Shown in pieces: positions 29,397-52,314 of a DNA stretch of 64,000 bases (position 1 is its first letter; every line of letters starts with the position of its first letter). The stretch lies in contig CAXXVS010000002.1 of NCBI GenBank assembly GCA_963674755.2, positions 2,176,001-2,240,000 on the forward strand, written 5' to 3'. This DNA comes from Desulfobacterales bacterium. GTDB lineage: Bacteria > Desulfobacterota > Desulfobacteria > Desulfobacterales > UBA5852. Under the pieces are notes generated by a model. The model was given only the letters and a program-made list of their open reading frames with translations, had not been told where the DNA came from and did not search any database. The translations under genes were made by a program, and so were the position numbers.

Positions 29397-29532
29397 TGGG
29401 CCTCCAAGAGATGCTTCCGGCTGAAATGCCGAGATCGAGGTTCTTGGTGATTAATAGAATATCCTGACGGAAAGCTATCTCACCATCAGCAGAAAAGGGG
29501 GGCAACTATAGGTACCCCCCTTCCCAAGGCGT

Positions 29533-30498
29533 TTATTCGTGATACGCGTTTTTTTCTTTATAGTATTTAATAGCTCCGGGGTGAACCGGTATCAAAGTAG
29601 GCGTAGCATTCTCTAATGTTGTTTCTCTTAAAGAAGGATGAATTGCATTGAGCTCATCTTTATGTTCAAAAACCGCTTTGACAAATTTATATACCACATC
29701 CTCAGGAATCTCTGGTCTACAAACAAGAATCGTTTTAGCTGCTACGGTATCAGTATCTTGGTCTACTCCTTTATAAGAACCACCGGGAATTGTCGCTTTT
29801 ACCAAGTATGGATAGGCAGCGACGACGGCATCACTCTCTTTTTCGGAAAAAGGAACAAGCCTTATTTTGTGTGTCATAGATAGGCTCGTGATTGAGGAAT
29901 TCGGTATGGGAGAACCAATAAATTCCGCTGAAATTGTTTTGTCTTGAAGGGCTTCAGTAGCTTCTGTAAACGATAAAAATTCAGGCTTGAAATCATCGTA
30001 TGAAATTCCTAAAGCTTTCAGAATTGCCCGTGATTTAACTTCAGTCCCGGATCCTGGAGAGCCTACTCCGATACGCTTTCCTTTAATATCTTCAATCGTT
30101 TTAATATCACTGCCGGCAAGTGTAACAAGATGAACGGGTTGGGTATACATGTTGAAAAGCGCCCTGACATCAATTTTATGGTCGAAATGTTTAGATTTTT
30201 CATAACCAAAGAAGGCATGGTAGGTTACGTCATAAGAAACCGTTGCCATTTCAATCTTTTTTTTATCGAGGAGCTTATAGTCTTCAACGGAACCGCCGGT
30301 TGACTCTACCGTAACGCTCAAATCCGGGACATATTTGCTGACGATATTCGCGATAGCACCTCCATACGGATACAGTCCTCCTCCGGTGCCCGCCGTTCCA
30401 ATGGACAGACGAGTGGTTTCAGCCATGGCGCCTGTCATGCCAAGACTCAGCAATGCCAAGCATGTGATCAGACCTACAACAAACCGTTTCGGTTCCAT
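29533..30498 (-). CDS. TAXI-family TRAP solute receptor
   Basis: Signal peptide, IGTAGTGGGLY, STGGSV, GSPGSGT, HPGAIKYY; start at 30498 has an AGGAG RBS. Confidence 0.92.
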   Translation of the reverse strand: MEPKRFVVGLITCLALLSLGMTGAMAETTRLSIGTAGTGGGLYPYGGAIANIVSKYVPDLSVTVESTGGSVEDYKLLDKKKIEMATVSYDVTYHAFFGYEKSKHFDHKIDVRALFNMYTQPVHLVTLAGSDIKTIEDIKGKRIGVGSPGSGTEVKSRAILKALGISYDDFKPEFLSFTEATEALQDKTISAEFIGSPIPNSSITSLSMTHKIRLVPFSEKESDAVVAAYPYLVKATIPGGSYKGVDQDTDTVAAKTILVCRPEIPEDVVYKFVKAVFEHKDELNAIHPSLRETTLENATPTLIPVHPGAIKYYKEKNAYHE

Positions 30499-30706
30499 AA
30501 CCATTCTCCTTTTTTGAATAATACGATTTGCCTCACCATTATTTGATTTAAGCCACATCCCATGTCGCGCGATGAGATCAATGTGGCGTTCCGACACCTG
30601 GCAGTTATCCCCAGGCGCATCGAGTAAATCGGTGCTCTCTTAGCTTATTCGACAGTGCCATATCCATGTTCACCGAGAATCTGATTCATTGTTTATTGAC
30701 TTGCCT

Positions 30707-31120: not shown

Positions 31121-32917
31121 CTACTTGTTGAGCAGCCCACCTTTGCGGTAGATATTCATCTGGACATCGGAAAAAAGGCCCTGGACTTCATCTCCGGATG
31201 GTAGCCTGATTTTACCGGTGACAAGGTCCACATCGATCCGTTGTCCGGTCTCGAGTCCGTTGCCGATCAACCTGGCGCAGAGGATGGGAAACCCCTTGTT
31301 GATCGCATTGCGTTCGTAGATTGCGCCGAAGGACTCGCCGATGATGCACGAGATGCCCAGGCTCTCGAAACAATCGACCGCCTGTTGCCTCGACGACCCG
31401 GCGCCGAAATTCTTGGGTACCACCACGATATCACCGGGCTTGGCCTTCTTGGCAAAGTCCTCGTAGCCGGCCAGATTATTGAAGGTGTACTGGCCCATTT
31501 CATTGATGTCGGTGATTGTCAGGTAGCGGTTGTGATAGATCATGTCGGTGTCGATGTCGTCCTCGTCGATGACCCAGACCTTTCCCGAAAAGCGGGTCGG
31601 TCGGTTGCCGACGGCGATGACCTTGGAGGACCCTGAAGCTGTGCGTATGTCTTTGGGAAACTGCGCCGGTATGGCAGGAATTGCATCGGCCGGGACGATT
31701 GCTCCGGCAATCGCCGATGCGGCCACTGTCGCCGGAGATGCCAGGTACACGTCTCCTTTGCCCTGCTTGCCCGCGAAGTTGCGGTTGCCCGTGCTGATCG
31801 TCACCTCTCCGGGACCGTTCTGTCCGATCTGACCGGCTGCGCAGCCAGCGCAGCCGGCGTTGCCCACCAGGGCCCCCGCCCTCTTGAAAATGTCGATGAA
31901 GCCTTCCTCCAAACAGCGCATCCAGATGTCGTCCGTGCTCGGCACGATCTTGAGTACCACGCCGGGGGCGATCTTTCTGTCTTTGAGTATTTCCGCCGCG
32001 GCCTTGAGATCCTCGTAGCGTCCGTTGGTGCATGAGCCGATAAACGCGGAATCGATCTTCGTACCTGCCAAAGCCTTGACCTCTACGACATCTTCCGGAT
32101 GACCGGGACGCGAGACCATAGGCCCAACTCCGTCCACATTTATCTCGATGGTTCTATCGTATGCCGCGTTATCATCGGCCAGCACGGATACTACTTTTTG
32201 ACCGCTGACCTTGGATGCGTATGCTACCACTTCCTGACTGGGTGGAAACAGGGCGATAATGCCCGCCATCTCCGTGGCCATGGATGCCATGGTGATCCTT
32301 CCGTCCAGGCTGAGCGTTTCCACGACATCCCCGTAAAACTCAGCCGAATAGCCGAGCAATGTGTTGGCGCCAAGCTGCCTGAGCACTGTCAGAACCAGGT
32401 CTTTGGACGTGGCCGACGGCGACGGCTTCCCCGTGAGGATAATTCTAGCCGACGGCGGCACCTTGAACCAGACATGACCGTATGCCCAGGCGTGAGCAAC
32501 ATCGACATCACCCATACCCTGCCCGAACGCGCCGATGGCACCAACGATGTTGGCGTGGGAGTCGGTGGAAACGAAAGCAGAGCCGGGCACCACCATCCTG
32601 GCGTCGATGGCCACATGGGTCCCGATCCCTTTGTCGACATCGAATACCGTTATGTTATGCTCGCGGGCGAAAATGCGGCAAATCTGCTGATTTGTGGCAT
32701 ACTTTGGATCCGAACCACCGGGATTGCAGTCAAATGTAAAGTAGGTCTTGCTCGCATCGTCGACGCCGAGCCCGCTGTCCTGAAGATTCTTGACCACGTT
32801 GGCGCCACCGAAATCGCGGGCCGCTCTGATGTCGATAGTAATGTCCACGATTTCGCCCGGGCAGACGTCACGCCCGCAATGTGCGCCGAGGATTTTCTCG
32901 ATTATTGTCTTACCCAT
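31121..32917 (-). CDS. Fused LeuC/LeuD-type (isopropylmalate/homoaconitate hydratase family) [4Fe-4S] hydratase
   Basis: TDSH, IGSCTNGR, CAGC, STGNRNF, then a swivel domain DIDTD...NFGAGSSRQQA...FGAIYERNAIN in one chain. Confidence 0.9.
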   Translation of the reverse strand: MGKTIIEKILGAHCGRDVCPGEIVDITIDIRAARDFGGANVVKNLQDSGLGVDDASKTYFTFDCNPGGSDPKYATNQQICRIFAREHNITVFDVDKGIGTHVAIDARMVVPGSAFVSTDSHANIVGAIGAFGQGMGDVDVAHAWAYGHVWFKVPPSARIILTGKPSPSATSKDLVLTVLRQLGANTLLGYSAEFYGDVVETLSLDGRITMASMATEMAGIIALFPPSQEVVAYASKVSGQKVVSVLADDNAAYDRTIEINVDGVGPMVSRPGHPEDVVEVKALAGTKIDSAFIGSCTNGRYEDLKAAAEILKDRKIAPGVVLKIVPSTDDIWMRCLEEGFIDIFKRAGALVGNAGCAGCAAGQIGQNGPGEVTISTGNRNFAGKQGKGDVYLASPATVAASAIAGAIVPADAIPAIPAQFPKDIRTASGSSKVIAVGNRPTRFSGKVWVIDEDDIDTDMIYHNRYLTITDINEMGQYTFNNLAGYEDFAKKAKPGDIVVVPKNFGAGSSRQQAVDCFESLGISCIIGESFGAIYERNAINKGFPILCARLIGNGLETGQRIDVDLVTGKIRLPSGDEVQGLFSDVQMNIYRKGGLLNK

Positions 32918-32932
32918 TTTGATTTCTCCGCT

Positions 32933-33508
32933 TTACTCGATAAGCTTGCCGTTGTTCTTCATGACGATCGGGTTAAAGGCCGCGAAGTCGGCCTGGTGGA
33001 TGAGCACAGTTTCGATGATCTGCGGACTTCCGTCGCCCTCCTTGGCGTGGCAGGCGATCATGTTGAGTGTTTTGTCGTCTATACCGACCCTGGCAGCCAG
33101 GACCGTTCCATAAATCGGGTGCCGCAAACACCTGCCAGCGATGCTTTTGGTGAAACCGCCCTTACCGTCCTTGATCGTCTCCACGAGCTTGCCGACATCG
33201 TGTAGAATGCCTCCCGCGACCAGTCGGTCATAATCGATCTTCAACGGCATTTTCCTGTAGGCTGCCTCCTGGGCCTTTCCCAAGGCATAAGCACCTTCGG
33301 TAACGGCGATGGTGTGCTCAATGATATTCACGCCGTGTGTGTCGGTCAGCGCGGTGAACGGCATGGTCTCAATCTCTTCGATGCTGTTCCAACCGCCCTG
33401 TTCGCAGGCCGCTTGCCATGTGGCGATGACCTTATCACGAAGCTCTTGGCAGCTGATTTTTTCGAGCTGTTTTTCGAATCGTTTCTCAATATCCGTTTTA
33501 CTGATCAT
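32933..33508 (-). CDS. HD/HDIG-domain phosphohydrolase
   Basis: EHT, LHDVGK, RHP, CH, HQAD. Confidence 0.85.
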   Translation of the reverse strand: MISKTDIEKRFEKQLEKISCQELRDKVIATWQAACEQGGWNSIEEIETMPFTALTDTHGVNIIEHTIAVTEGAYALGKAQEAAYRKMPLKIDYDRLVAGGILHDVGKLVETIKDGKGGFTKSIAGRCLRHPIYGTVLAARVGIDDKTLNMIACHAKEGDGSPQIIETVLIHQADFAAFNPIVMKNNGKLIE

Positions 33509-34774: not shown

Positions 34775-36133
34775 TTACGAATCCATTTGATTTTTCCATA
34801 GCCTGACAAGCTCCGTTGCATCGTGGCTGTCCACAGTCCTCGAGACACAGGCCATGATTTTCTCCATATGCGCTGGCGAGTAAATCTTCTTGCATGAATT
34901 GATAAATTTGCCTTTCACCTCTTCTGGATCGCCTGACATCCCTGATAGCCGGTCAATGGTCTGCGTGTGGATTCTTCCATCGCGCATGTTTATGATGATC
35001 TCGGCGCCGCGAATATCCGGATAGACTGCATTCCAATGGTCGGTGGAATAGGCCTTGACCTTTCTGGCGGTTGCTCGGATATCACTGCGGTCAATGGCCT
35101 TGTTGGTGAAGTCGTCCAGCCCCACGAAACCCGTATGCAGCGCCACGGCCAAGAGATAGTTCATGCTGAATCGGGCTTCCTGGGGGCTGTTGGGGTTTTG
35201 ATTTGAGGCGGTGGCGTCGATGGCGATATCAAAGGTGTTGACGATGATTTCGTTTATGTCTTCCAGATTCGATATGGATTTTCTTAGATGAAAGGATGCT
35301 TCGATAGCGGCGTGGGTATACCGGCAACAGGGGAACAGCTTGGTGTAGGTGTCATTGATCAAGGGTTTTGCGCCTAAATCGGCAAGACAATCGTTTACGA
35401 TTTGCTGGATCGGCAGATCGGACAAAATTTGGAACAAGCCCTTATCGCCTTCGAATATTTGCAGGGGCGCTTCCAGGTTTTGTTTTGCCAGTAGTGCGGC
35501 CGAGATCCCTCTCTCCGCCGCATAACCGACTTGCACCGGTTTGGCCATTTGTCCTTCGATCAGGGGCTGGCGGTATCCCGAGACGGCCAGGCCGGCCAGA
35601 CCCATGGCATAGGCCAACTGTCTTTCGGTCAAGCCGATCAGCTTGCCGGCCGTTACGGCGGCCCCGATCACTCCGCAGGTGCAGCTGCCATGAAATCCCT
35701 TTTGGATATGGGATTTCCCCAGGGCTTTTCCCAGCCGGTATTCCACATCATACCCGGCGATGATCGCTTCAAAGAATAAACTACCGTTGACGTTGTATTT
35801 GGGAGCTATGGCAAAAGCGGTTCCGATGACCGGCCCGGCGGCATGAATCCCTGCCCAGAGATGTCCATCGTCAAAATCGAGACAATGGGCAAGCGCTCCA
35901 TTCAAAAATCCCGCGATATTTTGGGAATACGCCTTGTCGCCGGCGCTACCACCAGACGATAGGGCATTGGCATAGTTGATCAGCCGCTGCGGAATATCGG
36001 AGTAATGAGTCGCCGCGGCAGATACGGTGATATAGTCTAAAATGCGCGACTTGACCGTTTCAACGGTATCCTGGTCGATTTCCGATAGTTTCAGATTGAA
36101 GACATAGTGGGACAGCGTTTCCGATAAAGTCAT
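34775..36133 (-). CDS. MmgE/PrpD-family protein
   Basis: HCLDFDDGH, GFH, KLFPCC, ARFS. Confidence 0.88.
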   Translation of the reverse strand: MTLSETLSHYVFNLKLSEIDQDTVETVKSRILDYITVSAAATHYSDIPQRLINYANALSSGGSAGDKAYSQNIAGFLNGALAHCLDFDDGHLWAGIHAAGPVIGTAFAIAPKYNVNGSLFFEAIIAGYDVEYRLGKALGKSHIQKGFHGSCTCGVIGAAVTAGKLIGLTERQLAYAMGLAGLAVSGYRQPLIEGQMAKPVQVGYAAERGISAALLAKQNLEAPLQIFEGDKGLFQILSDLPIQQIVNDCLADLGAKPLINDTYTKLFPCCRYTHAAIEASFHLRKSISNLEDINEIIVNTFDIAIDATASNQNPNSPQEARFSMNYLLAVALHTGFVGLDDFTNKAIDRSDIRATARKVKAYSTDHWNAVYPDIRGAEIIINMRDGRIHTQTIDRLSGMSGDPEEVKGKFINSCKKIYSPAHMEKIMACVSRTVDSHDATELVRLWKNQMDS

Positions 36134-36277
36134 GGCAGGACCTTCCTCAAGCATTGGGGGCAAGCTATAATGTTAAGACAATGTTCTTGGCTAGACCAGA
36201 GGGAGGAAGCTGTATAACCAATTCCGCTTTCGACCGATAACGCAGCCCCAAAACATTATCTTGAATACGGTTTATCA

Positions 36278-38624: not shown

Positions 38625-38714
38625 TGTGCAAACAACGCCTCGATTGATCTTATTATTTGTTTTTGTCACAGGCTTCCTTTGGGTTCGGTAATTTTGCGCA
38701 AATTTTTCAGCAAC

Positions 38715-38749
38715 AAAAACTCCCCCATTGTCAGTGGGGGAGTTAAAAA
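38715..38749 (-). terminator. Intrinsic terminator after the SMP-30 gene
   Basis: AAAAACTCCCCCATTGTCAGTGGGGGAGTT hairpin. Confidence 0.65.
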
Positions 38750-38799
38750 TTATCATATTTTTTGGGTTATGCTGAGGATATTAGCATTCTATACTCATT

Positions 38800-39846: not shown

Positions 39847-40269
39847 TGTAATTATTCTCCTTTTTTGATTATTGAAAATAAAAGATAAACAATGATATTA
39901 TACTATGCCTTGATCCTATCAATGAATAGGAGCTTACCTTTCAGAGAACTATCATAACCGATAAGACAATTTTCCGTTTTATGGTCATGTAGATCCCATA
40001 ACATCTCCGCCGATTATCATCTCAGACCCGTATTTTCGACATCTTCCCTTCTGCCCTTATAGAACTCAATTTACGTGTCAACTTGCAGACAGAACTGAGA
40101 ATGACGAGCGTCGTTAAGGATTCAAAATCGGAATAACATATCAATCGTCTCGGTTTTCTCAAGGCTCTTGAGAAGATTGAATCTTTCATCTTTGGTTTTT
40201 TCACAGGGCGTTCCGGCAACCATATTGTCGAATTTCGATTTCGGCATATCCAAGCCAAGTGGCGTCTCC

Positions 40270-40524
40270 ACACCCGCCATCACCGGAATGTCGACTGCCT
40301 GGATAACATTCCAGGTCGCGGACATGCATGATATCCTGCATTTGCATGATCCCCACATCGGGCTTGCCAAGCCAGGATCCAGCCAAGCCGAAGCCACTGA
40401 TCTGAACGGCCTCGAATCTAGCCGCTTCGATGATCATGGCGCTGAGCGCATCATGGCAACCCGGAACCACCAAGGCGCTTTTTTCGTTTATCTTCGATCG
40501 CAATATTTTGCTCTTGCTGGCCAT
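40270..40524 (-). pseudogene. Isocitrate lyase/PEP mutase (PrpB-like) family fragment
   Basis: VVPGCHDALSA...SGFGLAGSWLGKPDVG, a frameshift, then TWNVIQAVDIPVMA, then truncation. Confidence 0.8.
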
Positions 40525-40598
40525 GTGCTGCTCTTCATTCGACAATTTTTACGATCAGATAAGGTAGGGGTGATCGGCCGCTTACCCCTACGGCAGGG

Positions 40599-41138
40599 TC
40601 AGGCGTTTCTTCCCAATTCCAGCCCCAGTTCCAGGGCCTTCTGGTTCATGTCGATAAACCCGGACGGAATGCGTTCTTTGAGGACGGCCATGATGGATGC
40701 CGGCTGCACCAGCTCGGTCAGGGCCACCACCGCCCCCAGCATGCAGATGTTGAACACAATCGGTTTGCCGATCTCGTCCAACACCGTCTGGTACATGGGC
40801 AGTTCCACCTGCCAGGCGTCCACCTTGCGCTCCTGCTTGACGAAACGGCTGTCCGTCAAGAGCAGCCCCCCCGGTCGAATGATCGGGGCATACGACGTGT
40901 AGGCCTCCTGCGTCAGGCACACCAGCATGTTGGGCTGAACCACCTTGGGGAAGTTGATCTCTTCTTCAGATATAATGATGTCGGAACGGGTCGCCCCCCC
41001 CCGGGCCGCCGCGCCGTAGGCCTGGGACTGGGTGGCATTGAGCCCTTCGTAAATAACGGCCGCTTCGGCGAATATGATGGCTGCGGTTATGACACCCTGG
41101 CCGCCGGAACCGGTAAAGACCATCCGCATTCTTTCCAT
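40599..41138 (-). CDS. 2-oxoacid:ferredoxin oxidoreductase gamma subunit
   Basis: GSGGQG, YGAAARGG, NICMLG. Confidence 0.92.
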   Translation of the reverse strand: MERMRMVFTGSGGQGVITAAIIFAEAAVIYEGLNATQSQAYGAAARGGATRSDIIISEEEINFPKVVQPNMLVCLTQEAYTSYAPIIRPGGLLLTDSRFVKQERKVDAWQVELPMYQTVLDEIGKPIVFNICMLGAVVALTELVQPASIMAVLKERIPSGFIDMNQKALELGLELGRNA

Positions 41139-41143
41139 GGAAA

Positions 41144-41944
41144 CTAACCTTTCATCGCCTGTTCTATGATTTTGTCGTATTCACGGCAGTATTCCGGCGC
41201 TTCCTTCTGGACGAAGATGCCCCGTTCGATCAAATCCGGATTGTCTTTTTTCTTCTGGGATCCGATGGGCACCGTAATGTCCTTGTAGTGCTGCATCATG
41301 TCCGCGGCCGCACCCAGCTTGTTCTTGCGCCCGAAGTGCGTCGGGCATTGGGAGAAAATCTCCACCACGCTGAAACCCTCGTGCAGGATCGCCTGTTTGA
41401 TCAGGTCGGTGGCTTGCTGGGCATGAAAAGTTGTGCTGCGCGCCACAAAGGTGGCCCCGGCGGCCGTAGCCATCTCCACCACATCAAAATCCCGGTCGAT
41501 GTTGTGGAAGGGAGCGGTGGTGGCGTTGATCCCCACCCCGCTCATGGGCGAAAACTGACCGCCCGTCATCCCGTAAATGCGGTTGTTCATGACAATGGCC
41601 GTGATGTCGATATTGCGCCGGCAGGCGTGAATAAAATGGTTCCCGCCAATGGCCAGGGCGTCGCCGTCCCCCATGGGGACAATCACGTTTAACTCCGGTT
41701 TGGAAAGCTTGACCCCGGTGGCAAACGCCAGGGCCCGGCCGTGCAGCGTGTGCAGGGTGTGAAAATCCACATACCCGGAGATGCGCGACGAACATCCAAT
41801 ACCCGAGGCCACCACGATTTCGTTCTTGGAGAGCCCCAACTGCTCCACGGCCCGCAGCAGACTGTTCAAGACGGTGCCGTGGCCGCAACCCGGACACCAC
41901 ATGTGCGGGAAAAAGCGCTGGCGCAGATAATCATGAATGGCCAT
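41144..41944 (-). CDS. korB: 2-oxoacid:ferredoxin oxidoreductase beta subunit (TPP)
   Basis: WCPGCG, GIGCS, GDGD, YGMTGGQ, QCPT. Confidence 0.9.
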   Translation of the reverse strand: MAIHDYLRQRFFPHMWCPGCGHGTVLNSLLRAVEQLGLSKNEIVVASGIGCSSRISGYVDFHTLHTLHGRALAFATGVKLSKPELNVIVPMGDGDALAIGGNHFIHACRRNIDITAIVMNNRIYGMTGGQFSPMSGVGINATTAPFHNIDRDFDVVEMATAAGATFVARSTTFHAQQATDLIKQAILHEGFSVVEIFSQCPTHFGRKNKLGAAADMMQHYKDITVPIGSQKKKDNPDLIERGIFVQKEAPEYCREYDKIIEQAMKG

Positions 41945-41945
41945 T

Positions 41946-43094
41946 TTATACCCCCTTTCCCTGGATGAGCCGCAGCAGTTTACGAATATCCATCGGGGTG
42001 ATGAACACACCGTCGATGCGGTTGGCCAGGAAGACCCGCTCCGGAAAATCCACCGCTTTCTTAACTTCCTGCATGACCTGTCCCATGTTCTGCTCCACCA
42101 CGACGACCGCCTCGGCCTGCGCGCATTTTTCACGCACGATGTCCCTGGGAAACGGCCACAGGGTCTGCAATTCCAGCAGCCCCAGACGTTCGCCCCGTAT
42201 GCGCCGATCCTTGACCACGTGCAGGGCCGAGCGGGCCGACGCACCGTAGGACACCAGAACAATCTCCGCATCTTCGAGAGAATGTTCTTTGTAGCGCGCC
42301 AATAGACTGGCGCGATTTTCGATCTTGTCCACCAGGTGGCGGATCAGGCCGTGCACGACGTCCGGGTCCGCCGACGGAAACCCCCACATGTCGTGGTAGA
42401 GACCGGTGACGTTGTAGCGGTGTACGTCACCGAAGTCGCTCATGGGCAGCCGGCCGTCTTCCCGGGGCAGATAGGGATGGTAGTTGACCCCACCCTTGAC
42501 CGAGGTCCGCAGCCGTTCCACCAGGGGAATTTCTCCGGGTTCGGGTATCTCCAGTTTCTCCCGCATGTGGCCCACGATCTCGTCGAACAACAGGATCACC
42601 GGCGTACGGTAGGTCTCGGCCATGTTATACGCCTCGATCGTCATGGCAAAGACATCCTGATGATTGGAAGCGGTCAGCGCAATAATCGCATGGTCCCCAT
42701 GGGTTCCCCAGCGGGCCTGCATCACATCCCCCTGACTGCCGTGGGTGGGAATGCCCGTGGAAGGCCCCCCGCGCTGGACATTGGTGATGACACAAGGAAT
42801 CTCGGCCATGACGGCATAGCCCAGGGCCTCCTGCATGAGCGAAAAGCCCGGGCCGCTGGTGGCCGTCATCACCTTGTGACCGGTCAGCGAGGCCCCGATG
42901 ATCGCAGCTATCGACGCAATTTCATCTTCCATCTGGATGAATTTGCCCCCCGCGGTCGGCAACCGTCGGGCCAGTAATTCCGCAATTTCCGATGACGGGG
43001 TGATGGGGTACCCGGCAAAAAAATCCAGACCGGCATACAGGGCCCCTTCCACACACGCCTCGTTGCCCTGAACGAATTTAACCTGAGTGCTCAT
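41946..43094 (-). CDS. korA: 2-oxoacid:ferredoxin oxidoreductase alpha subunit
   Basis: GYPITPS, QMEDE, TSGPGFSL, QRGGPSTG. Confidence 0.9.
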   Translation of the reverse strand: MSTQVKFVQGNEACVEGALYAGLDFFAGYPITPSSEIAELLARRLPTAGGKFIQMEDEIASIAAIIGASLTGHKVMTATSGPGFSLMQEALGYAVMAEIPCVITNVQRGGPSTGIPTHGSQGDVMQARWGTHGDHAIIALTASNHQDVFAMTIEAYNMAETYRTPVILLFDEIVGHMREKLEIPEPGEIPLVERLRTSVKGGVNYHPYLPREDGRLPMSDFGDVHRYNVTGLYHDMWGFPSADPDVVHGLIRHLVDKIENRASLLARYKEHSLEDAEIVLVSYGASARSALHVVKDRRIRGERLGLLELQTLWPFPRDIVREKCAQAEAVVVVEQNMGQVMQEVKKAVDFPERVFLANRIDGVFITPMDIRKLLRLIQGKGV

Positions 43095-43309
43095 GATCCG
43101 CCCTCTTCGGTTTCGATTTCGATGGCAAGATCCGGGCAGCGGATCTCACAAAGTTTGCAGGCGATGCAATCTTCCATTCGGACCACTTCCGATTTCTCCT
43201 GCTGGTTCAGCTCAAGCACATGCTTGGGGCAAAAGGCCACACAAATGCCGCACCCCTTGCACCATTCGGCGTTGATTCTTATCTCGCTGACGTTCGTTTT
43301 GTTAACCAT
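43091..43309 (-). CDS. 2x[4Fe-4S] delta subunit of 2-oxoacid:ferredoxin oxidoreductase
   Basis: CKGCGICVAFCP and CIACKLCEIRCP. Confidence 0.92.
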   Translation of the reverse strand: MVNKTNVSEIRINAEWCKGCGICVAFCPKHVLELNQQEKSEVVRMEDCIACKLCEIRCPDLAIEIETEEGGS

Positions 43310-43393: not shown

Positions 43394-44953
43394 TCATGGG
43401 ACGACTTTGCGGACGGCATCTATCACCGTACCATCAACCCATTTCACAATGGCGACGATCTCCTCATCGAGTTTCGGTTTTTCAGGCTTGCCGCAAATTT
43501 GTTCCGCCATGGCCTTGAGTTCTTCAATGGGTTTGATCGGCAAGGAAGATCCCTTGACGGCATCCATCAGATCTTGTCGCTTGGGATTTATAGCGATGCC
43601 GCGTTCGGTGACGATGACATCGATCATTTCACCAGGGCCGCAGAGGGTTGTTACCTCATCGAGAATCACCGGGATGCGCCCTCTGAAGAGCGGGAGAGGG
43701 AAGATAACGCATTTTGCTGCCAGGCAGTTCTGCCACCCGCCGATGCCGTGCAATAGATATCCGTCGGAATGGGTCACCACATTGCCGTTGAAATTCAAAT
43801 CCACCTCGGTGGCACCCAATATGACGACATCCAGCATGGAAGCAAAGTTGCCTTTGCCATGATAATTATAGCTGGTGAAAGGGCTGGTATCGACGTGGTT
43901 TGTGTTCTCGCGCATGGACCGGACGCCGTCGAGGTCGAAGGTTTGTCCATCCAGGATATACTTGGTCAGGTTACTCTCCAGCATTTCCACCAGGTACTTA
44001 TTGCTGCCGCCCCGAGCAAATGCGCAGGCGAGTCCCTTGCGTTTCAGAATTTCTCCGAAATAGATGCCGATGGACAAGGCGGTTCCGCCGGCGCCGGCTT
44101 GAAAGGAAAAGTGGTCATGAAACAATCCGGCGGCCTCACAGAACTGGGCCGTCATCTCCGCCAGAAGCAGGCGGTCCGGACTTTTCGTGACCTGGGTAGT
44201 GCCGGAAATGATTTTTTCAGGAATTCCAACCTTGTCCACCTTTACGGTATAATCTACGTAGTTTCCTTGAATCTGCCAGGGAATACAGGGAAAGGGAACA
44301 AGGTTGTCTGTCACCACGATAGTTTTATCGGCGTACTGCGCGTCCGCTAATGCGAAGCCCAGAAGGCCGCAGGCCGTCGGCCCGTAAAGCCCGTTGGCAT
44401 TCCCAAAACTATCCGCTGCCGGTGCGGCGATCACCGCGATATCAATATGCAAATCGCCGTCCTGGATCGCCTGGTACCGTCCGCCGTGTGATCTAAGCAC
44501 ACCGGTGCCGCGCATGTGACCCTGAGAGCAAAAACGGCCGAGGTCCCCGTTCATACTGCCTTCGATGTGATGAATAACGCCGCTTTTTAAATGGTCTATG
44601 ATGGGGTTATGGCAGGGAAACGAAGCTGACGGCGCCCAAACCAAATCTTTGAGGCCCAACTGCGCAGCGATCTCAAACACCTGGTTTGCAATGAGATCAC
44701 CATTGCGAAAATGATGATGGGTCGAAATGGTCATTCCATCTTTCAATCCCGCCTTGATCAAGGCCGATTTTAAATCCGGCTGCAATTTGTTTCCATCAGC
44801 CGGATAGTCGGCGCAGGTGGCGATGGGAGGGCCGTATTTGCGCCCCGACGGCCTGTATTTCCCAACTCCTCTGAATGGTTCCAGCGCTTTACCGTTCGCT
44901 ATAACAGGAACCATCCGACCTGCCGTGTTTTGAACACAATTCATATTACTCAT
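43394..44953 (-). CDS. citF: Citrate lyase alpha subunit (CoA/ACP transferase)
   Basis: TISTHHHFRNGD, RSHGGR, FQAGAGG, LGATEVD, VTERGIAINP. Confidence 0.9.
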   Translation of the reverse strand: MSNMNCVQNTAGRMVPVIANGKALEPFRGVGKYRPSGRKYGPPIATCADYPADGNKLQPDLKSALIKAGLKDGMTISTHHHFRNGDLIANQVFEIAAQLGLKDLVWAPSASFPCHNPIIDHLKSGVIHHIEGSMNGDLGRFCSQGHMRGTGVLRSHGGRYQAIQDGDLHIDIAVIAAPAADSFGNANGLYGPTACGLLGFALADAQYADKTIVVTDNLVPFPCIPWQIQGNYVDYTVKVDKVGIPEKIISGTTQVTKSPDRLLLAEMTAQFCEAAGLFHDHFSFQAGAGGTALSIGIYFGEILKRKGLACAFARGGSNKYLVEMLESNLTKYILDGQTFDLDGVRSMRENTNHVDTSPFTSYNYHGKGNFASMLDVVILGATEVDLNFNGNVVTHSDGYLLHGIGGWQNCLAAKCVIFPLPLFRGRIPVILDEVTTLCGPGEMIDVIVTERGIAINPKRQDLMDAVKGSSLPIKPIEELKAMAEQICGKPEKPKLDEEIVAIVKWVDGTVIDAVRKVVP

Positions 44954-46160
44954 GACTTCCTCTCCAATCCTCCGACAGTTTACCCAGTTGAATTGCTGCC
45001 ATAATGGTTCGCTGGGCTTTCTCCACAACGGGCGCATCGATCATTTTGGTGCCGACTGAAACAACCCCTTTACCTTCTCCAAGGGCTTTCTCGAATGCCT
45101 TGGCGATGGTCTTGGACTTCAGGATCTCCTCCTCGTCCGGAGAATACCCATCATGGATGATCCTGATTTGCCGCGGGTGAATACAGCCCATGCCTTCGAA
45201 GCCTAATGTTTTTGAACGCTGAACCGTCTGCTTCAGACCTTCGGTGTCACCCACGTCGGAAAAAACGGAATCGATGGCCTGGAGGTCGTACGCTTTGCAC
45301 ACATTGACCAGATGGCTGCGTGCATAGAGCGATTCAATGGCCTCGGTGGACCGTCTGACGCCAAGATCGGCCGTGTAGTCCTCCAGTCCGATGGCTAAGG
45401 CGACGATATTCTTCCCGGCCGCGGCAATTTTTTCGGCGTTAAGAACCCCTTTGGCGCTCTCGATGATCGGCATGAGGAAAACTTCCTGCTCCGATTTCTC
45501 ACCTGACTTGATCGCCTCGATGCGGTCATTGACTTGTTCGATTTCTGCGCCGGATTCGCATTTGGGAATGAGAATGACGTGCACGTTGTGGGGCACCACC
45601 TGATCGAGGTCCGTCAGCCCCCGTGGAATCTGGTTGATACGCACCATTCGCTCGGCACCGTAAAAGTCGACCTGCCGCAGTGCATTGCGAACCAACAGGC
45701 GGGCTTCATCCTTTTTATCCACCGCCACGGCATCCTCCAGATCCAGAATTACGGCGTGGGGGTGATGAATACCCGCGTTGATCATCATTTTGGGGGTATT
45801 CCCCGGAAGATAAAGACGCGACTGGCGCAACTGCTTGCGGGCCGATCCATACTGGTTGGCCGGCAGTATATCCGGCAAGAAATTGTGCTCAACCGGGAAT
45901 GCCTTCTTGATGCAGGCTTCAATCCTGGCGGCCAGGACAAAATCCAGCGCGCCTGCGTCTTCGATATGGACATCGCCTTTCTCGATACTGAAAAAGTCAA
46001 AGACCTTTCTGGCCGTTGCGGCAATGGCCTTGCCAAAGAGAATATCGACCCGGCTTTCCACGCGGATAGCGAGGTCTTTGTCCGCCTCCGGGTCGAAGGT
46101 TATCAGACAATCACCGCGTACCTTGGTTCCTTTGTTGCCTGCTGTAACCGGATATTTCAA
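44946..46160 (-). CDS. CitD(ACP)-CitE (citryl-CoA lyase) fusion
   Basis: N-terminal ~90 aa CitD-like (IEDAGALDFVLAARIE); C-terminal CitE (LYLPGN, DLEDAV, VRIN, IPK, IESA, CIHPRQ, MIDAPV). Confidence 0.88.
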   Translation of the reverse strand: MKYPVTAGNKGTKVRGDCLITFDPEADKDLAIRVESRVDILFGKAIAATARKVFDFFSIEKGDVHIEDAGALDFVLAARIEACIKKAFPVEHNFLPDILPANQYGSARKQLRQSRLYLPGNTPKMMINAGIHHPHAVILDLEDAVAVDKKDEARLLVRNALRQVDFYGAERMVRINQIPRGLTDLDQVVPHNVHVILIPKCESGAEIEQVNDRIEAIKSGEKSEQEVFLMPIIESAKGVLNAEKIAAAGKNIVALAIGLEDYTADLGVRRSTEAIESLYARSHLVNVCKAYDLQAIDSVFSDVGDTEGLKQTVQRSKTLGFEGMGCIHPRQIRIIHDGYSPDEEEILKSKTIAKAFEKALGEGKGVVSVGTKMIDAPVVEKAQRTIMAAIQLGKLSEDWRGSHE

Positions 46161-46162
46161 TT

Positions 46163-47137
46163 TTAGGCTCCTTTGTTCAATACTGATGCGGTGTGTGAAA
46201 ACACCGCGTCGGGTCGCTGGACGACGGTGATACCGGCATCCTCCAGGACGTTTCGTTTATACGCATAGGATTCTTCTTCATTGCGGATCATGGCTCCCGC
46301 ATGGCTCTGGGCCACGCCGGCTTTCGAGAACTTACCCCCCAGGAACAGCACAATGGGTTTGGTGATCGCCCCGGTCCTCACGGCTGCCGCCAGATCATTT
46401 TCCTGGGTGGTGCCGGTTTCGCCGTAAACGGCCATTACCTTGGTGCGGGGGTCTTTTTGAAAAGCACGTGCGGCATCGAGGAGGGTGACGCCGGGAATGG
46501 GATCCCCGCCGATGCACAGGACGGCACTGACGCCTGGATAGGTCTCGTCCCACAGGGGACCAAAAGATCCATCAGGACGCGGCCCGGATAGATGAGGGCG
46601 GCAATGAAACGCGCCGAAGAGTTGGGACAACCCGCCGGAGCGGGAGATGATGCCGACACAGCCGGGCAGATAGTTTTTCCTGGCCCACTCCGCATTGCCG
46701 CCGATCAGCCCGAACAGATAACCGGTTGTGTCCAGCATGCCCACCGTATTGGGCCCCAGGTAGAGGCTTCCTTTTGCCCGGGCGTATTCCTTGACGACGA
46801 TCTGGTCGTGGATCGGTACGCCGTCGGCCGTGAACACCAGGAATCTAATCCCGGCCTCCATGGCGTCCATGGCCGCCGCCTTAACGGCACCGGCCGGGAC
46901 GTAGGTGACTGCGCAGTTGATCTCGGGAATGGCTGCCACGGCCTCGGCGGCGGAATTGAAAACCGGTACGCCGTCGACCGACTGCCCGCCCTTTCCCGGG
47001 GTACAGCCGGCGAGAATCGGCGTTCCCACCGCTTTCATCGTTCGGCTGGCATTTCTGCCCATCTTGCCGGTGATGCCGAAAACCAGAACGTTTGGGGTTT
47101 CAATATCAGCCAGATGTTTTAGAATTCCGTCCATCAA
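46163..47137 (-). CDS. Succinyl-CoA synthetase alpha-like CoA ligase subunit
   Basis: GITGKMG, TPGKGG, GPNTVG, SRSGG, IGGD, SHAGA (phospho-His). Confidence 0.85.
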   Translation of the reverse strand: MMDGILKHLADIETPNVLVFGITGKMGRNASRTMKAVGTPILAGCTPGKGGQSVDGVPVFNSAAEAVAAIPEINCAVTYVPAGAVKAAAMDAMEAGIRFLVFTADGVPIHDQIVVKEYARAKGSLYLGPNTVGMLDTTGYLFGLIGGNAEWARKNYLPGCVGIISRSGGLSQLFGAFHCRPHLSGPRPDGSFGPLWDETYPGVSAVLCIGGDPIPGVTLLDAARAFQKDPRTKVMAVYGETGTTQENDLAAAVRTGAITKPIVLFLGGKFSKAGVAQSHAGAMIRNEEESYAYKRNVLEDAGITVVQRPDAVFSHTASVLNKGA

Positions 47138-48621
47138 TTCATCTCCGGAATATCGAGCTTTATGCGCAGCTCCCCATTGCCCTCGAGCAGGGATACGGTC
47201 TCACACAAGAGGCAGCCGATGCATCGGGCGTCTTGCGCCGGTTCCACCCATCGTCTATCCGGATTCCACTTCAGGAACTGCGTCGGACAAATCGTGACGC
47301 ATGGGGGTGGGGTCGGCTGCGTCCATTTCTGCGGATCGAAATAAAATTCACCCGGTGGGAGATCGACGCGGAAAGCGGGTTCTCCGCCGGGTTGATCTTC
47401 CGGCACGACGGTCATCCGTTTTTCCGATGCCATCTGCGCAATATGGTCGATCATGGCACTGGGGAACAGGTGGGCCGGAAAGGTTTTCACCTTAACCGGC
47501 AGACTCGGCATGACCCTTTCCATCAGGGCCTGGGCTTTGTCCTCCTCGGTACCCCCGAACCGCAACAGGGAGGGCAAGGGGGTCGGGCTTTCACGCAGCG
47601 CTTTCCAGACCGCCGCAGCCAGGTGATATTGATTTTGAAACGCCATGCCCGATCCGGTGAGCAGCAGGACTTGAGGGGTATCGAGCGCCAGAATGGCCCG
47701 CAGCAATCGATAACTCTTAAAGGCCGAGAGTCCGCCTGACGTATCGGATTCGTTCGCACTGTAAATATCCTTTCGTCCGCCCACGGCCATCTCCCATAGC
47801 ATCTTGCCGCCGCCCCCGCACAGATTGGTGGCCACGCGGTATGCACCGGCAGGGACCGGCGCGCGATTTTCACGGATGAAACCGGTTCCGGCCGGTTCAA
47901 GGGCGTTGATTTTTTCGACGATGCGCTCGATACGGGTCTGCTCCTCACGACCGGCGTCATGGATAGTGAACAATGGCTTATCGGCTTTGGCGATGGCATG
48001 CCTTTCGAATTCGGCACGGCAATCGATCACCAGCAAGGATCCGTCTTCCCGCACGCCCACGGGGTTGACTTCCAGTACGGTGAGTTTGTAGCGAATAAAG
48101 GTATTGATGATGCCTTCGAGAAAGGTGGCCAGGGCCTCGGGATGATCCAGTTCGGCGAAATGACCGGTGAGCATGTCTGCCGTGGGCGGACGAAGCAGGG
48201 AGAAAGATATTTTCTTCAGGCTTCCGGACCGCTCTTCAACCCCGGATCCGCCCTGGGACGAAAACATGAGGATGCCGCCGGGAAGTTTGTTGGCGCTGCC
48301 AAAGTCCAATATGCAGCCCACATAATACTCGTGACAAAGTTTGGCTGCGGATGTCACCAGCAAGCCTTCAACAGGCCCTTGCGCCTTTGCGGCGAACATC
48401 TCCTCGATATCCGATGCCATTTGAAGGGGATCTTCCACCCGCCGGACGAGTCCCTGGGCGGCCCGGCTGGTCGCACCCGTAATTTGGGCCTTCAGGTAAA
48501 CCGGGGGGGGGAGCCGATCGCGGCCTGGATCGTTTTGCGTATTGAGAAACACGCCGTCCACCAAAGGGACGCCTTGGTTGGCGAGCAGGCGGCGCGTCTT
48601 GTATTCCGGTAGCGCGGTCAT
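47134..48621 (-). CDS. Succinyl-CoA synthetase beta-like ATP-grasp subunit with C-terminal ferredoxin-like domain
   Basis: EY, KAQ, GGSGVE, EVNP, GGGG, N..DTSG, RFGG; C-terminal CVTICP...CIGCLLC. Confidence 0.8.
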   Translation of the reverse strand: MTALPEYKTRRLLANQGVPLVDGVFLNTQNDPGRDRLPPPVYLKAQITGATSRAAQGLVRRVEDPLQMASDIEEMFAAKAQGPVEGLLVTSAAKLCHEYYVGCILDFGSANKLPGGILMFSSQGGSGVEERSGSLKKISFSLLRPPTADMLTGHFAELDHPEALATFLEGIINTFIRYKLTVLEVNPVGVREDGSLLVIDCRAEFERHAIAKADKPLFTIHDAGREEQTRIERIVEKINALEPAGTGFIRENRAPVPAGAYRVATNLCGGGGKMLWEMAVGGRKDIYSANESDTSGGLSAFKSYRLLRAILALDTPQVLLLTGSGMAFQNQYHLAAAVWKALRESPTPLPSLLRFGGTEEDKAQALMERVMPSLPVKVKTFPAHLFPSAMIDHIAQMASEKRMTVVPEDQPGGEPAFRVDLPPGEFYFDPQKWTQPTPPPCVTICPTQFLKWNPDRRWVEPAQDARCIGCLLCETVSLLEGNGELRIKLDIPEMN

Positions 48622-48638
48622 GGTCTGTTCCTTGTGAC

Positions 48639-49778
48639 TTATCTGATGAACGCATTCCCGCTCATGAGCAGGCGAGCTGTCCGGCTAAGTAGAATTTTTT
48701 GAACCACGCCCTCACTGGATATCAAAGTCTCCAAACTCATCGTCCCGCTGGGATGGCCGATCCTGATCTGATAGGTTTCGCCGAGACCGGCGTTTTCGGA
48801 AGTCATGAATTCCGAGGCGATCGTGCCGGGCAGGCAGCACGCCGCCGCGGTAGCGACCGAGCCGGTACCGGGGTAGGCCTTGGAAAACAGTCCTCTGGTG
48901 ATGCTTCTGGAAAACAGGTCGTAACCGTCGGCAGGGATATCGTCTCCATTCAACGTTGCGTAATCACGCGGCGCACCGACGATAAACAGCAACGGATTCA
49001 TCTTGATTCTGAACTCGTCGGAATCCAGAGTGGCATCGATATAGCCCAGGGAGATGGCAATCGAGGCCCGAATCGTCTCCAGTTTTTTTACCAGGGTCCG
49101 GTTTTCCTGAAGCGTGACAATATCCGTCGAATCGTCCATGCCCACATCGGACGCGCGAATAAAGATGCAAAGGTTGGCCAGATCGACGACCGACGCGTCT
49201 ATCTTACCAAGATTGGGCACGTCATAGGTGTCGCATGGGGAGCCGGTCGGCAGAATGCCCCGGCCGAGGATACAGCCGGAGAAATCGCTGAAATCCAGGT
49301 CCAGACGCGCCGCCGTACCCGGGACCCCGCCGATTGAATAGCCGCCATCGATCTTGGGCTGAGAATTCTCCACCGGCACGGTAGCAATCAGGGTCCTGCC
49401 GGTATTCACCTGGTGGATTCTGACCTTGGCGGCTTCGCCTTCGGTGGCGACGTATTTTTTATGCACGGCGTAAAGCGCCGCTCCGGCCGAGATATTGCCG
49501 CAGTTGCTCTTCCAGTCGATAAAGGGCAGGGTGATGTTGACCTGACCGAACAGGTAATCGATATCACAATCGTCCTTTGTCGGCGCGCCCATCACGGCAA
49601 CCTTACTGGTCAATTTGTCGGCCCCGCCGAGACCGTCGATTTGCCTTGCATCCGGGCTGCCAAACAAGGATAGAATTTCACGGTCGAATCGATCTTTTTC
49701 GCTTGGCAACGCTTTTCTATCGATGAAAATACCTTTGCTGGTGCCGCCCCTGATAATATCGCACGGTATCTGCTTCAT
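48639..49778 (-). CDS. prpF: PrpF-family isomerase
   Basis: RGGTSKG, QIDGLGGA, TSK, NCGNIS, HPSG, RTAR. Confidence 0.9.
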   Translation of the reverse strand: MKQIPCDIIRGGTSKGIFIDRKALPSEKDRFDREILSLFGSPDARQIDGLGGADKLTSKVAVMGAPTKDDCDIDYLFGQVNITLPFIDWKSNCGNISAGAALYAVHKKYVATEGEAAKVRIHQVNTGRTLIATVPVENSQPKIDGGYSIGGVPGTAARLDLDFSDFSGCILGRGILPTGSPCDTYDVPNLGKIDASVVDLANLCIFIRASDVGMDDSTDIVTLQENRTLVKKLETIRASIAISLGYIDATLDSDEFRIKMNPLLFIVGAPRDYATLNGDDIPADGYDLFSRSITRGLFSKAYPGTGSVATAAACCLPGTIASEFMTSENAGLGETYQIRIGHPSGTMSLETLISSEGVVQKILLSRTARLLMSGNAFIR

Positions 49779-50151
49779 TTTTTTCTCCTTTAATTGATAG
49801 TGTTATTTTCAGATGTCCCACTCGAACATTGCAGAAAAAACTTCCCCGTACTCATTAGGCGACCTTGAAACGGGTGTTGAATGGGATAGTGTGGATCATC
49901 CGGTCGGTAATCCGCTTGAGTTGGCTGAAGTCGGCTAACCCCAGACAGGTATGGTAAAGCCAGTGGTAGTACCAGCTCGGCAGGACAGCCGCCGGACCGA
50001 TAGCAGAATGGCTTTCTTTATTCTCTTCATTTGCCTGTCCTCGAACATCACCTTTCACGGATAACCGGATAAATACTTTTTCTTTGGCCTTTTTCGCACC
50101 GCTTGAGGCGTCCGGCCGTATCTATGGTAATTTTGGCTTTTAGCCCTCCTA

Positions 50152-50169
50152 ATTAAAATATCGTGCCAA
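50152..50169 (-). promoter_or_regulatory. Sigma54-like promoter of the prpF-ligase-cit-kor operon
   Basis: TTGGCACGATATTTTAAT, divergent from the sigma54 activator gene. Confidence 0.6.
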
Positions 50170-50391
50170 TTTGCAAACAAATTCTAAATTGTCCATTTTC
50201 TTGATTCCCGATGTTTCGTAATTTGCCTCATATTGCATATCTATTCGAAATAAAGGAGATTTTAGACTTATGAGGAGGAGCCTGACGCGATGAGCAAAGG
50301 CGCATGTTCATCCCTTGATTTGCATTGACACGAAATATAGTTGCATGTATGTTCCACATAATGAAATATATTTGAAACACAGGGGTTGCAC

Positions 50392-52314
50392 ATGCAAAAC
50401 GACATCGTCATTGGAATCATTTCCGCTACCCGGGAATTCATCGAATGTGCATCTTACGTCGCGGATCAAAAGAAAATTAAAATCTTGATTTCGGAAGCCG
50501 GTCTCGAAGCCAGTGTTGAACACGGGCAAAGGATGGAAAAGGAGGGCGTCGATGTGGTCATCGCCTGGCGGGCGGGAGCGGAAATTTTGCGCAAAACACT
50601 CAACATCCCCGTCTTGACCGTTCAATTTACCGCCTATGATTTGATCGCTCACATCAAAGACGCCAAAACGTTGGGCAATAAAATCCTAGTGACCGCCTAT
50701 CGCTCCAAGCCACCGCACCTGGATCTGCTGAGCCAAATATTTGATGTCAAGATCACCGCCTGTATTTACAACAACTCCAAAGAACTCGAAAATTTGATCA
50801 AGCAGGCGAAAACAAACGAATACGATGTGATCATTGGCGGCGGGATTACCCTGAGATTGGCCAATATATATGGACTGAAAAGCGTCGCCTACCGTCCGGC
50901 GGTTGAAAGCATGGAATCCGCTTTCGACGATGCCATCGCGATTGCACGCATCGCCCGGCAAAAGCACCAATGCGAATCCGACTACTCGTCCATCATCGAC
51001 GCATTCAACGAGGGGGTCGTTTCAATCAACGATAACGGTGTGGTGTCTTCCATCAATCAATTCGCCCTCAAAGCGCTGAACCTGGAAGTCGGCGATGTCG
51101 TTGGCAAAAATTTCCGGTCGATTTTCCAAAGTTCATCCATTGACACAGTCCTTGCCACCGGCAACGCATTGTGGGGAACCATCGAGGTGATCAACAACAA
51201 CAAATTCATTACGAATTATGTGCCGTTGATCAACCAGCAACAACCCATTGGCGTTGTTTTGATGTTCAAGGACATTTCCACCCTGATTAAAGAGGAAAAC
51301 CAAGTCAGACGCTCGCTGATCCGCAAGCACCGGGCCAAATACAAGATCGCGGATTTCATCCATAAATGCGATCTCATGAAGCGCATGATAAAAAAAGTCA
51401 AAACGTTTTCGAAAACCGATGCCACCGTTTTAATCAGTGGAGAAACCGGAACCGGAAAGGAAATCATCGCACATTCGATCCATCAACTCAGCAACCGTAA
51501 AAAAGGATCCTTTATTTCCATTAATTGTGCTGCCATTCCGGACAATCTGTTGGAGAGCGAATTGTTCGGGCACGAGCAGGGCGCGTTCACTGGATCCAAA
51601 AAAGGGGGGAAAATCGGATTGTTCGAATTGGCCCACAATGGGACCATCTTCCTGGATGAAATTGGATCGATGCCGGTCGGTTTGCAGAGCAGTCTGCTCA
51701 GGGTGTTGCAGGAGAGGGAAGTGATGCGCATCGGCGGAGAGCGGCTGATTCCCATCGATGTGCGTGTTATCGCCGCGGCCAACCAAAATATTCCCAAGGC
51801 GGTCAAAGAGGGTGCCTTCAGGGAAGACCTTTATTTCAGGCTCAGCGTACTGACGGTTTTTATTCCACCGCTTAGGGAGCGATTGGCGGACCTGGATTTA
51901 ATCGTCGACTTTTTAATTGAAAAATATTCCAGACAATTTAGGACATCGCCATTCAAGGTGCCGGTACTTTTCATTGAGCGCCTCAAACGAATGCAATGGC
52001 CGGGCAATATCCGCCAACTTCAAAATTTCATCGAAAAGATGGTTATCCTATCGGAGGGGAATTTCTCATCCGATGTGTTCGATGACATTTACCAGGAGTT
52101 GGAGTACTATTCGGTTTGCGAAGGCCAGGAAGATGATAAACTGATTTCAGTGACGCCTGACACAGTCGCCAACAAAATAATAGACGATGAAGCCAGAACC
52201 ATTTTGGATGCCTTGGAGAAATCCAAACTGAACAAGAAAAAGGCCGCCGATTACCTCGGCATCAGCAGGACCACACTCTGGCGTAAGATGCGGACTCTGA
52301 AAATAAAAATCTAA
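50392..52314 (+). CDS. PrpR-like sigma54-dependent activator (PrpR_N, PAS, AAA+, Fis HTH)
   Basis: GETGTGKE, ESELFG, GAFTGS, FLDEIG, WPGNIRQL, LGISRTTLWRK. Confidence 0.92.
   Translation: MQNDIVIGIISATREFIECASYVADQKKIKILISEAGLEASVEHGQRMEKEGVDVVIAWRAGAEILRKTLNIPVLTVQFTAYDLIAHIKDAKTLGNKILVTAYRSKPPHLDLLSQIFDVKITACIYNNSKELENLIKQAKTNEYDVIIGGGITLRLANIYGLKSVAYRPAVESMESAFDDAIAIARIARQKHQCESDYSSIIDAFNEGVVSINDNGVVSSINQFALKALNLEVGDVVGKNFRSIFQSSSIDTVLATGNALWGTIEVINNNKFITNYVPLINQQQPIGVVLMFKDISTLIKEENQVRRSLIRKHRAKYKIADFIHKCDLMKRMIKKVKTFSKTDATVLISGETGTGKEIIAHSIHQLSNRKKGSFISINCAAIPDNLLESELFGHEQGAFTGSKKGGKIGLFELAHNGTIFLDEIGSMPVGLQSSLLRVLQEREVMRIGGERLIPIDVRVIAAANQNIPKAVKEGAFREDLYFRLSVLTVFIPPLRERLADLDLIVDFLIEKYSRQFRTSPFKVPVLFIERLKRMQWPGNIRQLQNFIEKMVILSEGNFSSDVFDDIYQELEYYSVCEGQEDDKLISVTPDTVANKIIDDEARTILDALEKSKLNKKKAADYLGISRTTLWRKMRTLKIKI

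Follow-up and report, generated by a model that had tools for sequence, protein, structure and literature searches.

The window analyzed here, a 64,000-nucleotide stretch of a Desulfobacterales genome (contig CAXXVS010000002.1, positions 2,176,001 to 2,240,000), encodes an ADP-forming acyl-CoA ligase whose beta subunit ends in a ferredoxin-like domain that is predicted to bind one [4Fe-4S] cluster (Table 1). We somewhat favor the reading, at a probability of about 0.55, that beta and the adjoining alpha subunit make the CoA ester of citrate, or of a close hydroxy-polycarboxylate, to serve the CitE-type lyase encoded beside them, and that the single cluster is structural. In this model the two-subunit ligase would catalyze a phosphohistidine-type reaction (acid + ATP + CoA <-> acyl-CoA + ADP + Pi), and the lyase would cleave the product by a retro-Claisen step to acetyl-CoA and a 2-oxoacid (for citrate, oxaloacetate), giving overall a split ATP-citrate-lyase-like step that in the reverse direction could yield ATP. 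The acid would be supplied by PrpF and an aconitase-family hydratase, probably from an imported tricarboxylate such as aconitate, and the cluster would likely serve assembly or stability (a structural or regulatory role) rather than catalysis.

The core of beta has the features expected of a working ligase. Pfam ATP-grasp_2 (PF08442) matched residues 4 to 188 above its cut-off. A homologue search gave 168 matches among 7998 scored candidates, and the best 120 of the 168, which are 54 to 95% identical to beta over nearly the full length, were aligned with the query; all conservation counts out of 121 refer to this set. The ATP-grasp residues K44, R53, E98, E184, N186 and D200 were invariant (121/121). 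A preliminary description of this DNA had pointed to an altered GGRGK loop. The loop is indeed divergent (ITGATSRAAQGL versus HAGGRGKAGG in the aligned SucC rows), but it is not broken, since Lys44 and Arg53 are invariant. Beta thus carries the conserved Lys, Arg, Glu, Asn and Asp of the ATP-grasp superfamily, and the adjoining alpha subunit has the corresponding CoA-binding domain and phospho-His, with the SHAG motif and the catalytic Glu invariant in all 34 aligned clade members. Because these residues are invariant in both subunits, an active ligase should be expected. A model of the whole beta chain (predicted local distance difference test score [pLDDT], 89.1; predicted template modeling score [pTM], 0.59) matched the folds of succinyl-CoA synthetase (SCS), citryl-CoA synthetase (CCS) and ATP-citrate lyase (ACL). 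An independent assembly spans positions 46596-50400 with 17 substitutions and no gaps, which rules out an assembly artefact as the origin of the fusion.

The preliminary description held that the enzyme is not an ordinary SCS and represents a new acyl-CoA ligase class, and both points are supported, the protein belonging to a distinct, apparently undescribed branch. Beta scored 60.9 and 52.2 bits against the SucC profiles NF001913 and TIGR01016 (cut-offs, 370 and 375.6) and 25.9 bits against the MtkA profile NF010647 (cut-off, 604). Trees of the core were built with FastTree (79 sequences) and with IQ-TREE (LG+G4, 42 of these sequences, ultrafast bootstrap [UFboot] limited to 120 iterations), and both set the window family apart from SucC. 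In the IQ-TREE analysis the close family was sister to a branch linked to citryl-CoA lyase (UFboot, 100), this pair fell within a clade of proteins bearing the Fe-S module (80), and the clade was sister to ACL-like proteins (92); FastTree placed the close family as sister to the rest of the module-bearing clade (0.93). Of the phylogenetic comparison proposed earlier, separation from SucC and kinship with ACL-like proteins were therefore obtained, MtkA and CcsA not being among the taxa. On these trees beta lies outside SucC, in a widespread, uncharacterized module-bearing clade.

These results bear on the possibility that the protein is a divergent SCS that saves ATP from the succinyl-CoA of the adjoining 2-oxoacid:ferredoxin oxidoreductase. 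SCS structures came first by E-value, genes resembling isocitrate dehydrogenase (IDH), aconitase and 2-oxoacid:ferredoxin oxidoreductase flank some relatives, and no complete SucC over the cut-off was found in the source genome (an 83-aa contig-edge fragment only) or in the two Fermentibacterota genomes tested. We nevertheless regard this as very unlikely: beta falls far short of the SucC cut-offs, does not have the GGG-A and FGGI motifs seen in the SucC rows and is parted from SucC in the trees, a separate canonical SucC was present in 3 of the 5 carrier genomes tested, and an SCS would leave the pairing with lyases unexplained. Another SucCD-like pair in the source genome (C2:154215-157815) forms its own clade in the trees, lacks the Fe-S module and is followed by a CitE-like lyase and an SdhA/FrdA-like flavoprotein; it was rejected as canonical SucC (251-260 bits against a cut-off of 370, with its own CitE alongside).

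The main support for a citrate-type ligase is that two unrelated lyase folds swap beside the same ligase. All neighborhood counts are limited to the flank examined around each locus. In the window a CitD-CitE fusion lies two genes downstream of beta, a partner lyase as in the CcsA and ACL systems. A lyase of the citrate-synthase fold was found near 9 of 11 close loci outside the Fermentibacterota and near 50 of 80 broader loci (44 of the 53 in which downstream room exists), and the two copies tested exceeded the PRK06224 cut-offs. Where the Fe-S module is a separate gene (split-module loci), CitE was found near 18 of 24, often with glycolate-oxidase genes. MtkAB and malyl-CoA lyase follow the same logic of ligase plus CitE-family lyase as the window, and an MtkAB-type function is likely for the split-module branch beside glycolate-oxidase genes; we know of no Fe-S domain on malate thiokinase MtkAB. 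Individual split loci (L141, L142, L216-L218) run beta, small Fe-S gene, alpha and CitE-like lyase, accompanied by GlcD/E/F-like genes and often by a GntR-like regulator, which suggests a glycolate-malyl-CoA-malate route with ATP gain.

Citryl-CoA synthetase plus lyase is a closer functional model than SCS, which the preliminary description missed. Citrate is cleaved in two steps by CCS and citryl-CoA lyase (CCL), and among the autotrophs surveyed the accessible part of that source lists the pair only for Aquificaceae and Leptospirillum (PMC13147460). The CcsA/CcsB plus Ccl system of Hydrogenobacter thermophilus (PDB 6HXQ) resembles the window in having separate alpha and beta chains and a separate lyase; chain 6HXQ_B aligned with beta by profile in one stretch over residues 3-396, with a common linker and GNPP/K-x-Y region, and gave the highest query TM-score (0.62) among the Foldseek matches listed, although Thermus SucC had the higher profile score. 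CcsA differs in that the alignment ends at residue ~396, without a ferredoxin tail, and its A-N-N-T and R-R-N-G-P segments are replaced in beta; moreover, the window lyase is of the CitE type. SucCD (Thermus 3UFX, E. coli 1SCU) shares the ATP-grasp and ligase-domain fold and the phospho-His alpha subunit and gave the best E-values, but the SucC motifs GNGAGL, DxGGG and FGGI are missing from beta, which has different acid-binding loops and an extra ~90-aa Fe-S domain. ACL (bacterial AclB types and the N-terminal part of human ACLY) shares with the window enzyme the S-G motif replacing the SucC G-G-G, the GGGG loop and the alpha SRSGG motif; it differs in that the window lyase is not fused to alpha and that the citrate-binding Asn/Thr/Arg are not kept. 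No match to PF16114 was found in the source genome at E<=1e-12.

Several observations weigh against the citrate-type assignment. One is the acid site. The ACL citrate-binding segments A-N-F-T and R-R-G-G-P read A-F-Q-N-Q and R-F-G-G-T in beta, so that the Asn/Thr loop and Arg of citrate binding (A-N-[FN]-T, R-[RG]-[GN]-G-P) are absent, and the clade-specific set S295, K302, R305 and Q329 stands in place of the ACL citrate residues; in human ACLY citrate is bound by residues 343-348 and 379, according to the accessible part of PMC11365397. Because these known segments are replaced, beta is not filed as CCS or ACL. SCS structures ranked ahead of CCS by E-value for both subunits, a very long branch (1.97 substitutions per site) leads to the close family, and the trees contain no CcsA or MtkA. 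CitF in the window could furnish citryl-CoA without a ligase, and the window has neither the AksF-like dehydrogenase nor the citryl-CoA lyase found in related operons. No lyase was found in the examined flank of the 44 Fermentibacterota-type loci. In addition, the acid substrate appears to vary within the clade, since the split-module branch probably handles malate. With regard to the structural role of the cluster, four invariant Cys would also suit a sensor. In the Fermentibacterota-type loci (L010-L055) a radical-SAM/SPASM gene, in many cases together with a DUF362 gene, precedes the ligase genes in place of tricarboxylic acid (TCA) cycle-like genes. On the supporting side, all four Fermentibacterota carrier genomes tested (of unstated completeness) have an unlinked CitD-CitE fusion, ~40% identical to that of the window; CitF was found in 0/4 and a citrate-synthase-fold gene in 1.

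How the CitE partner would obtain its substrate was also considered. No match to citC, citG or citX, which load and acetylate the acyl carrier protein (ACP) of classical citrate lyase, was found in the source genome (97% complete), whereas an E. coli control was positive for all three; CitE therefore likely needs a free CoA ester. The CitD-like domain (45861-46160, minus strand) reads R-G-D where 4/4 related CitD-CitE fusions have K-S-D, and it gave no sequence match against the PDB. Given the absence of citC/G/X matches, the ACP of the fusion is probably not loaded.

The ligase might instead activate an unsaturated or branched acid (aconitate, itaconate, mesaconate, citraconate or methylitaconate) in a PrpF/hydratase/lyase route, rather than a citrate-like hydroxy acid. 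PrpF directly upstream of beta, the PrpD-like, HacAB-like and PrpB/isocitrate lyase (ICL)-like genes nearby and the replacement of the ACL citrate residues by S295/K302/R305/Q329 are consistent with this. We judge it improbable, as PrpF was near 0/159 other loci scored while lyases recur, and the operon showed no enoyl-CoA hydratase. In support of the favored reading, a second PrpR/PrpF/Kor locus of the genome (C2:1905000-1935000) holds TcuA, TcuB, AcnA, IDH and tripartite-transporter-like genes together with a KorDABG copy (84% nucleotide identity to that of the window); it is apparently a tricarballylate/aconitate catabolic locus and so ties the PrpR/PrpF pair to tricarboxylates.

The C-terminal tail, which ends ...PPPCVTICP...RCIGCLLCETVS..., was described earlier as a one-cluster ferredoxin domain fused to a SucC-like subunit, and the alignment bears this out. 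In the two-cluster ferredoxin layout, four Cys of the C445/C467/C470/C473 type are the ligands of one cluster. These four and E474 were present in 121/121 sequences; C441 was present in 76/121, position 433 was Trp in 102, and position 477 was Ser or Ala in 121/121. Instead of the eight Cys of a two-cluster domain, the tail thus has four ligands and a variable C441. As read from the alignment, it keeps one full four-Cys set and has lost the ligands of the other cluster, and it is predicted to bind one [4Fe-4S] cluster. A chance run of Cys was ruled out by the conservation in homologues. Pfam Fer4_7 matched residues 441-476 weakly (E, 0.004; below the cut-off), and the family profile matched Fe-S subunits at an E value of 2e-4. 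Modeled alone, the tail gave a confident structure (pLDDT, 92.8; pTM, 0.82) with a ferredoxin fold; its best structural matches were ferredoxin-type Fe-S domains, at modest similarity (best VIA-align Z, 6.0; root mean square deviation, 2.7 over 65 residues). The isolated domain gave no Foldseek match at E<=0.001, and ESM Atlas matches scored under 0.9 and provided ferredoxin-like leads only. A decaying or Zn-binding remnant without an Fe-S cluster would fit the subthreshold Pfam matches, the Z of only 6.0 and the loss of nearly all Cys in some relatives. We give it very little weight, as the invariant Cys form precisely the four-ligand set of a single ferredoxin cluster and the tail is conserved like the N-terminal domain (mean identity, 59% versus 52%).

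The distribution of the module suggests how the one-cluster state arose. A representative search found a wider group of relatives at 25-34% identity, among them proteins of ~515 aa that have an eight-Cys tail and tailless proteins of ~420 aa; a search from one member of this group returned many close relatives, with names pointing to Zixibacteria, Anaerolineae, KSB1, Acidobacteria and other groups. Both Cys motifs were found in 118 of the 119 relatives among the matches listed. The tail was fused to beta in 54 of 56 close loci (the other two are cut by contig ends) and in 80/80 broader metagenome loci, and in genomes of the window's own phylum the module has its own gene of ~95 aa, placed between those for beta and alpha (clear in 22 of 24 distinct loci, weak or truncated in 2). 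From 160 tails found, 114 were nonredundant and 91 of these were aligned. Eight Cys occurred in 49/49 broader fused rows and 5/33 close rows, the remaining 28 close rows retaining only the cluster of the window protein; the separate-gene modules (9/9 rows) keep the opposite cluster and miss one ligand of the window-type cluster. Three relatives (P0136, P0166 and P0169) retain the tail domain and the conserved Glu with 2, 2 and 0 C-terminal Cys, respectively, the P0136 cluster including a Planctomycetota metagenome-assembled genome, and three further representatives seem to lack the cluster that the window lineage has lost. Judged from this pattern of Cys loss across lineages, the ancestral module had eight Cys, the one-cluster form arose later and the domain varies less than either cluster does. 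The preliminary description had missed this derivation from a widespread module that is sometimes a separate gene.

The clade is patchy, being found in 22 of 301 own-phylum genomes and, at E<=1e-90, in 1 of 251 genomes of the phylum of G357, that one being the search center itself. A close-type gene was not found in 12/12 same-genus and 4/4 same-family genomes searched, and among 60 relatives there were two matches, both of the distant split type. Vertical inheritance within the genus was thus unsupported, and because the close-type gene was not found in these 16 genomes, beta looks like an accessory acquisition.

The preliminary description had offered a structural element, a redox or O2 sensor and a link to the co-encoded oxidoreductase as roles for the cluster. 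A structural or assembly role, which is plausible, is favored over an electron wire because the domain and the Glu persist in lineages that have lost one cluster, the other or nearly all Cys. Alternatively, the cluster on the same ligase could control ATP use at the citrate node, either as a switch responding to redox state, O2 or iron or by electron exchange with the oxidoreductase. In keeping with such a role, the four ligands are invariant in 121/121, the module persists as a separate gene in the own-phylum loci, KorDABG is co-oriented in the window and most named carriers belong to uncultured lineages from sediments or digesters. This seems to us unlikely, and the redox link in particular has lost ground: the cluster that is kept differs between lineages, some of which have hardly any Cys left, KorA-like genes were near only 3/11 non-Fermentibacterota close, 4/80 broader and 1/24 split loci, the oxidoreductase has its own delta ferredoxin and the ligase reaction is non-redox. 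We are equally doubtful of a more general version, in which the whole branch would be a three-part enzyme (alpha, beta and Fe-S module) with a new Gln/Lys/Arg acid site, its cluster reading redox state, O2 or iron or coupling to the oxidoreductase and so gating the ATP-linked breaking or making of C-C bonds at the citrate/malate node; if so, the one-cluster lineage would reveal which cluster works. Under the favored structural role, the shifting Cys pattern resembles that of archaeal RNA polymerase subunit Rpo3, in which the ferredoxin-like domain is non-essential, aids assembly and, depending on the lineage, carries 0, 1 or 2 cluster motifs, according to the accessible part of PMC5300874. Rpo3 chain 2pa8_D was among the fold matches of the tail. 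Both are Fe-S ferredoxin domains on non-redox enzymes; the host enzyme is unrelated, and the likeness is an analogy only.

No description of a CoA-ligase/ferredoxin-tail fusion, and no precedent for an NDP-forming CoA ligase equipped with an Fe-S module, was found in the literature searched (mostly abstracts, with subscription papers and supplements outside its scope); the accessible part of PMC11237513 does not mention the fusion. The window contributes a one-cluster lineage that sits on a long branch and next to CitD-CitE/CitF, together with the finding that clusters are lost reciprocally. In many lineages without cultured members (Fermentibacterota, Myxococcota, Zixibacteria, Anaerolineae, KSB1 and others) the relatives are now annotated as succinyl-CoA synthetase beta or as hypothetical proteins. 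Should they make up a split system cleaving citrate or malate with ATP, then TCA cycle direction, reductive TCA cycle potential and substrate-level ATP formation would have been missed in genome-based calls for these anaerobes. The natural series of modules (eight Cys, either cluster lost or nearly no Cys; fused or separate) renders the role of the module directly testable.

TABLE 1 Features of the ligase region in the window
Feature	Position	Strand	Remark
ADP-forming acyl-CoA ligase beta subunit: ATP-grasp, acid/CoA-ligase domain and C-terminal ferredoxin-like domain	47134..48621	-	495 aa
Ferredoxin-fold domain, residues ~417-492	47146..47373	-	Predicted single [4Fe-4S] site
Predicted [4Fe-4S] ligands	C445, 47287-47289; C467, 47221-47223; C470, 47212-47214; C473, 47203-47205	-	
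Alpha subunit, SucD/CcsB-like	46163..47134	-	ATG overlaps beta stop
PrpF-family isomerase	48639..49778	-	First gene of run, directly upstream of beta
CitD-CitE fusion (ACP-like domain and CitE-type acyl-CoA lyase)	44946..46160	-	Likely lyase partner
CitF, citrate lyase alpha (CoA/ACP transferase)	43394..44950	-	Above TIGR01584 cut-off; open reading frame (ORF) reaches 45037
Four-subunit 2-oxoacid:ferredoxin oxidoreductase (delta, alpha, beta, gamma; KorDABG)	40599..43309	-	
PrpB/ICL/phosphoenolpyruvate (PEP)-mutase-like gene	40122-40545	-	Frameshifted, apparently truncated
PrpR-like sigma-54 activator	50386..52314	+	Divergent, at head of run
MmgE/PrpD-family dehydratase-like gene	34775..36163	-	
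HD-domain protein	32933..33508	-	59% identity to HD protein of ligase operon elsewhere (L002)
Fused HacA/HacB (LeuC/LeuD)-type aconitase-family hydratase	31121..32917	-	70% identity to copy in ligase operon L002
TAXI-type TRAP transporter (binding protein and fused permease)	27510..30597	-	

The ligase genes belong to a minus-strand run of prpF, beta, alpha, citD-citE, citF, korDABG, the PrpB/ICL-like gene and a lactonase gene. In the PrpB/ICL-like gene, Pfam PEP_mutase matched the first 74 aa, and the remainder is in another frame. In metatranscriptome contigs from two studies, parts of the stretch from prpF to citF are represented, beta among them; the adjoining PrpR gene had no cover in the contigs of those two studies and was covered in two other runs. 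This is a weak hint of transcription, because the RNA runs were picked with the window stretch itself. The lack of RNA cover on the Fe-S tail in one run (X15) carries no information. Beyond insertion sequence (IS) debris follow the prpD-like gene, a 2-hydroxyacid dehydrogenase gene and the genes for the HD protein, the fused HacAB-type hydratase and the TAXI transporter. An HD-domain protein accompanies lyase, aconitase and IDH-like genes in 29 of 93 clustered loci. The catabolic region is broken up by a transposase-like ORF and IS fragments (23457-24881 and 36500-38900), where GC content falls to 0.37-0.48, and a short piece resembling the PrpR C terminus (38505-38834) lies within the IS-disrupted part.

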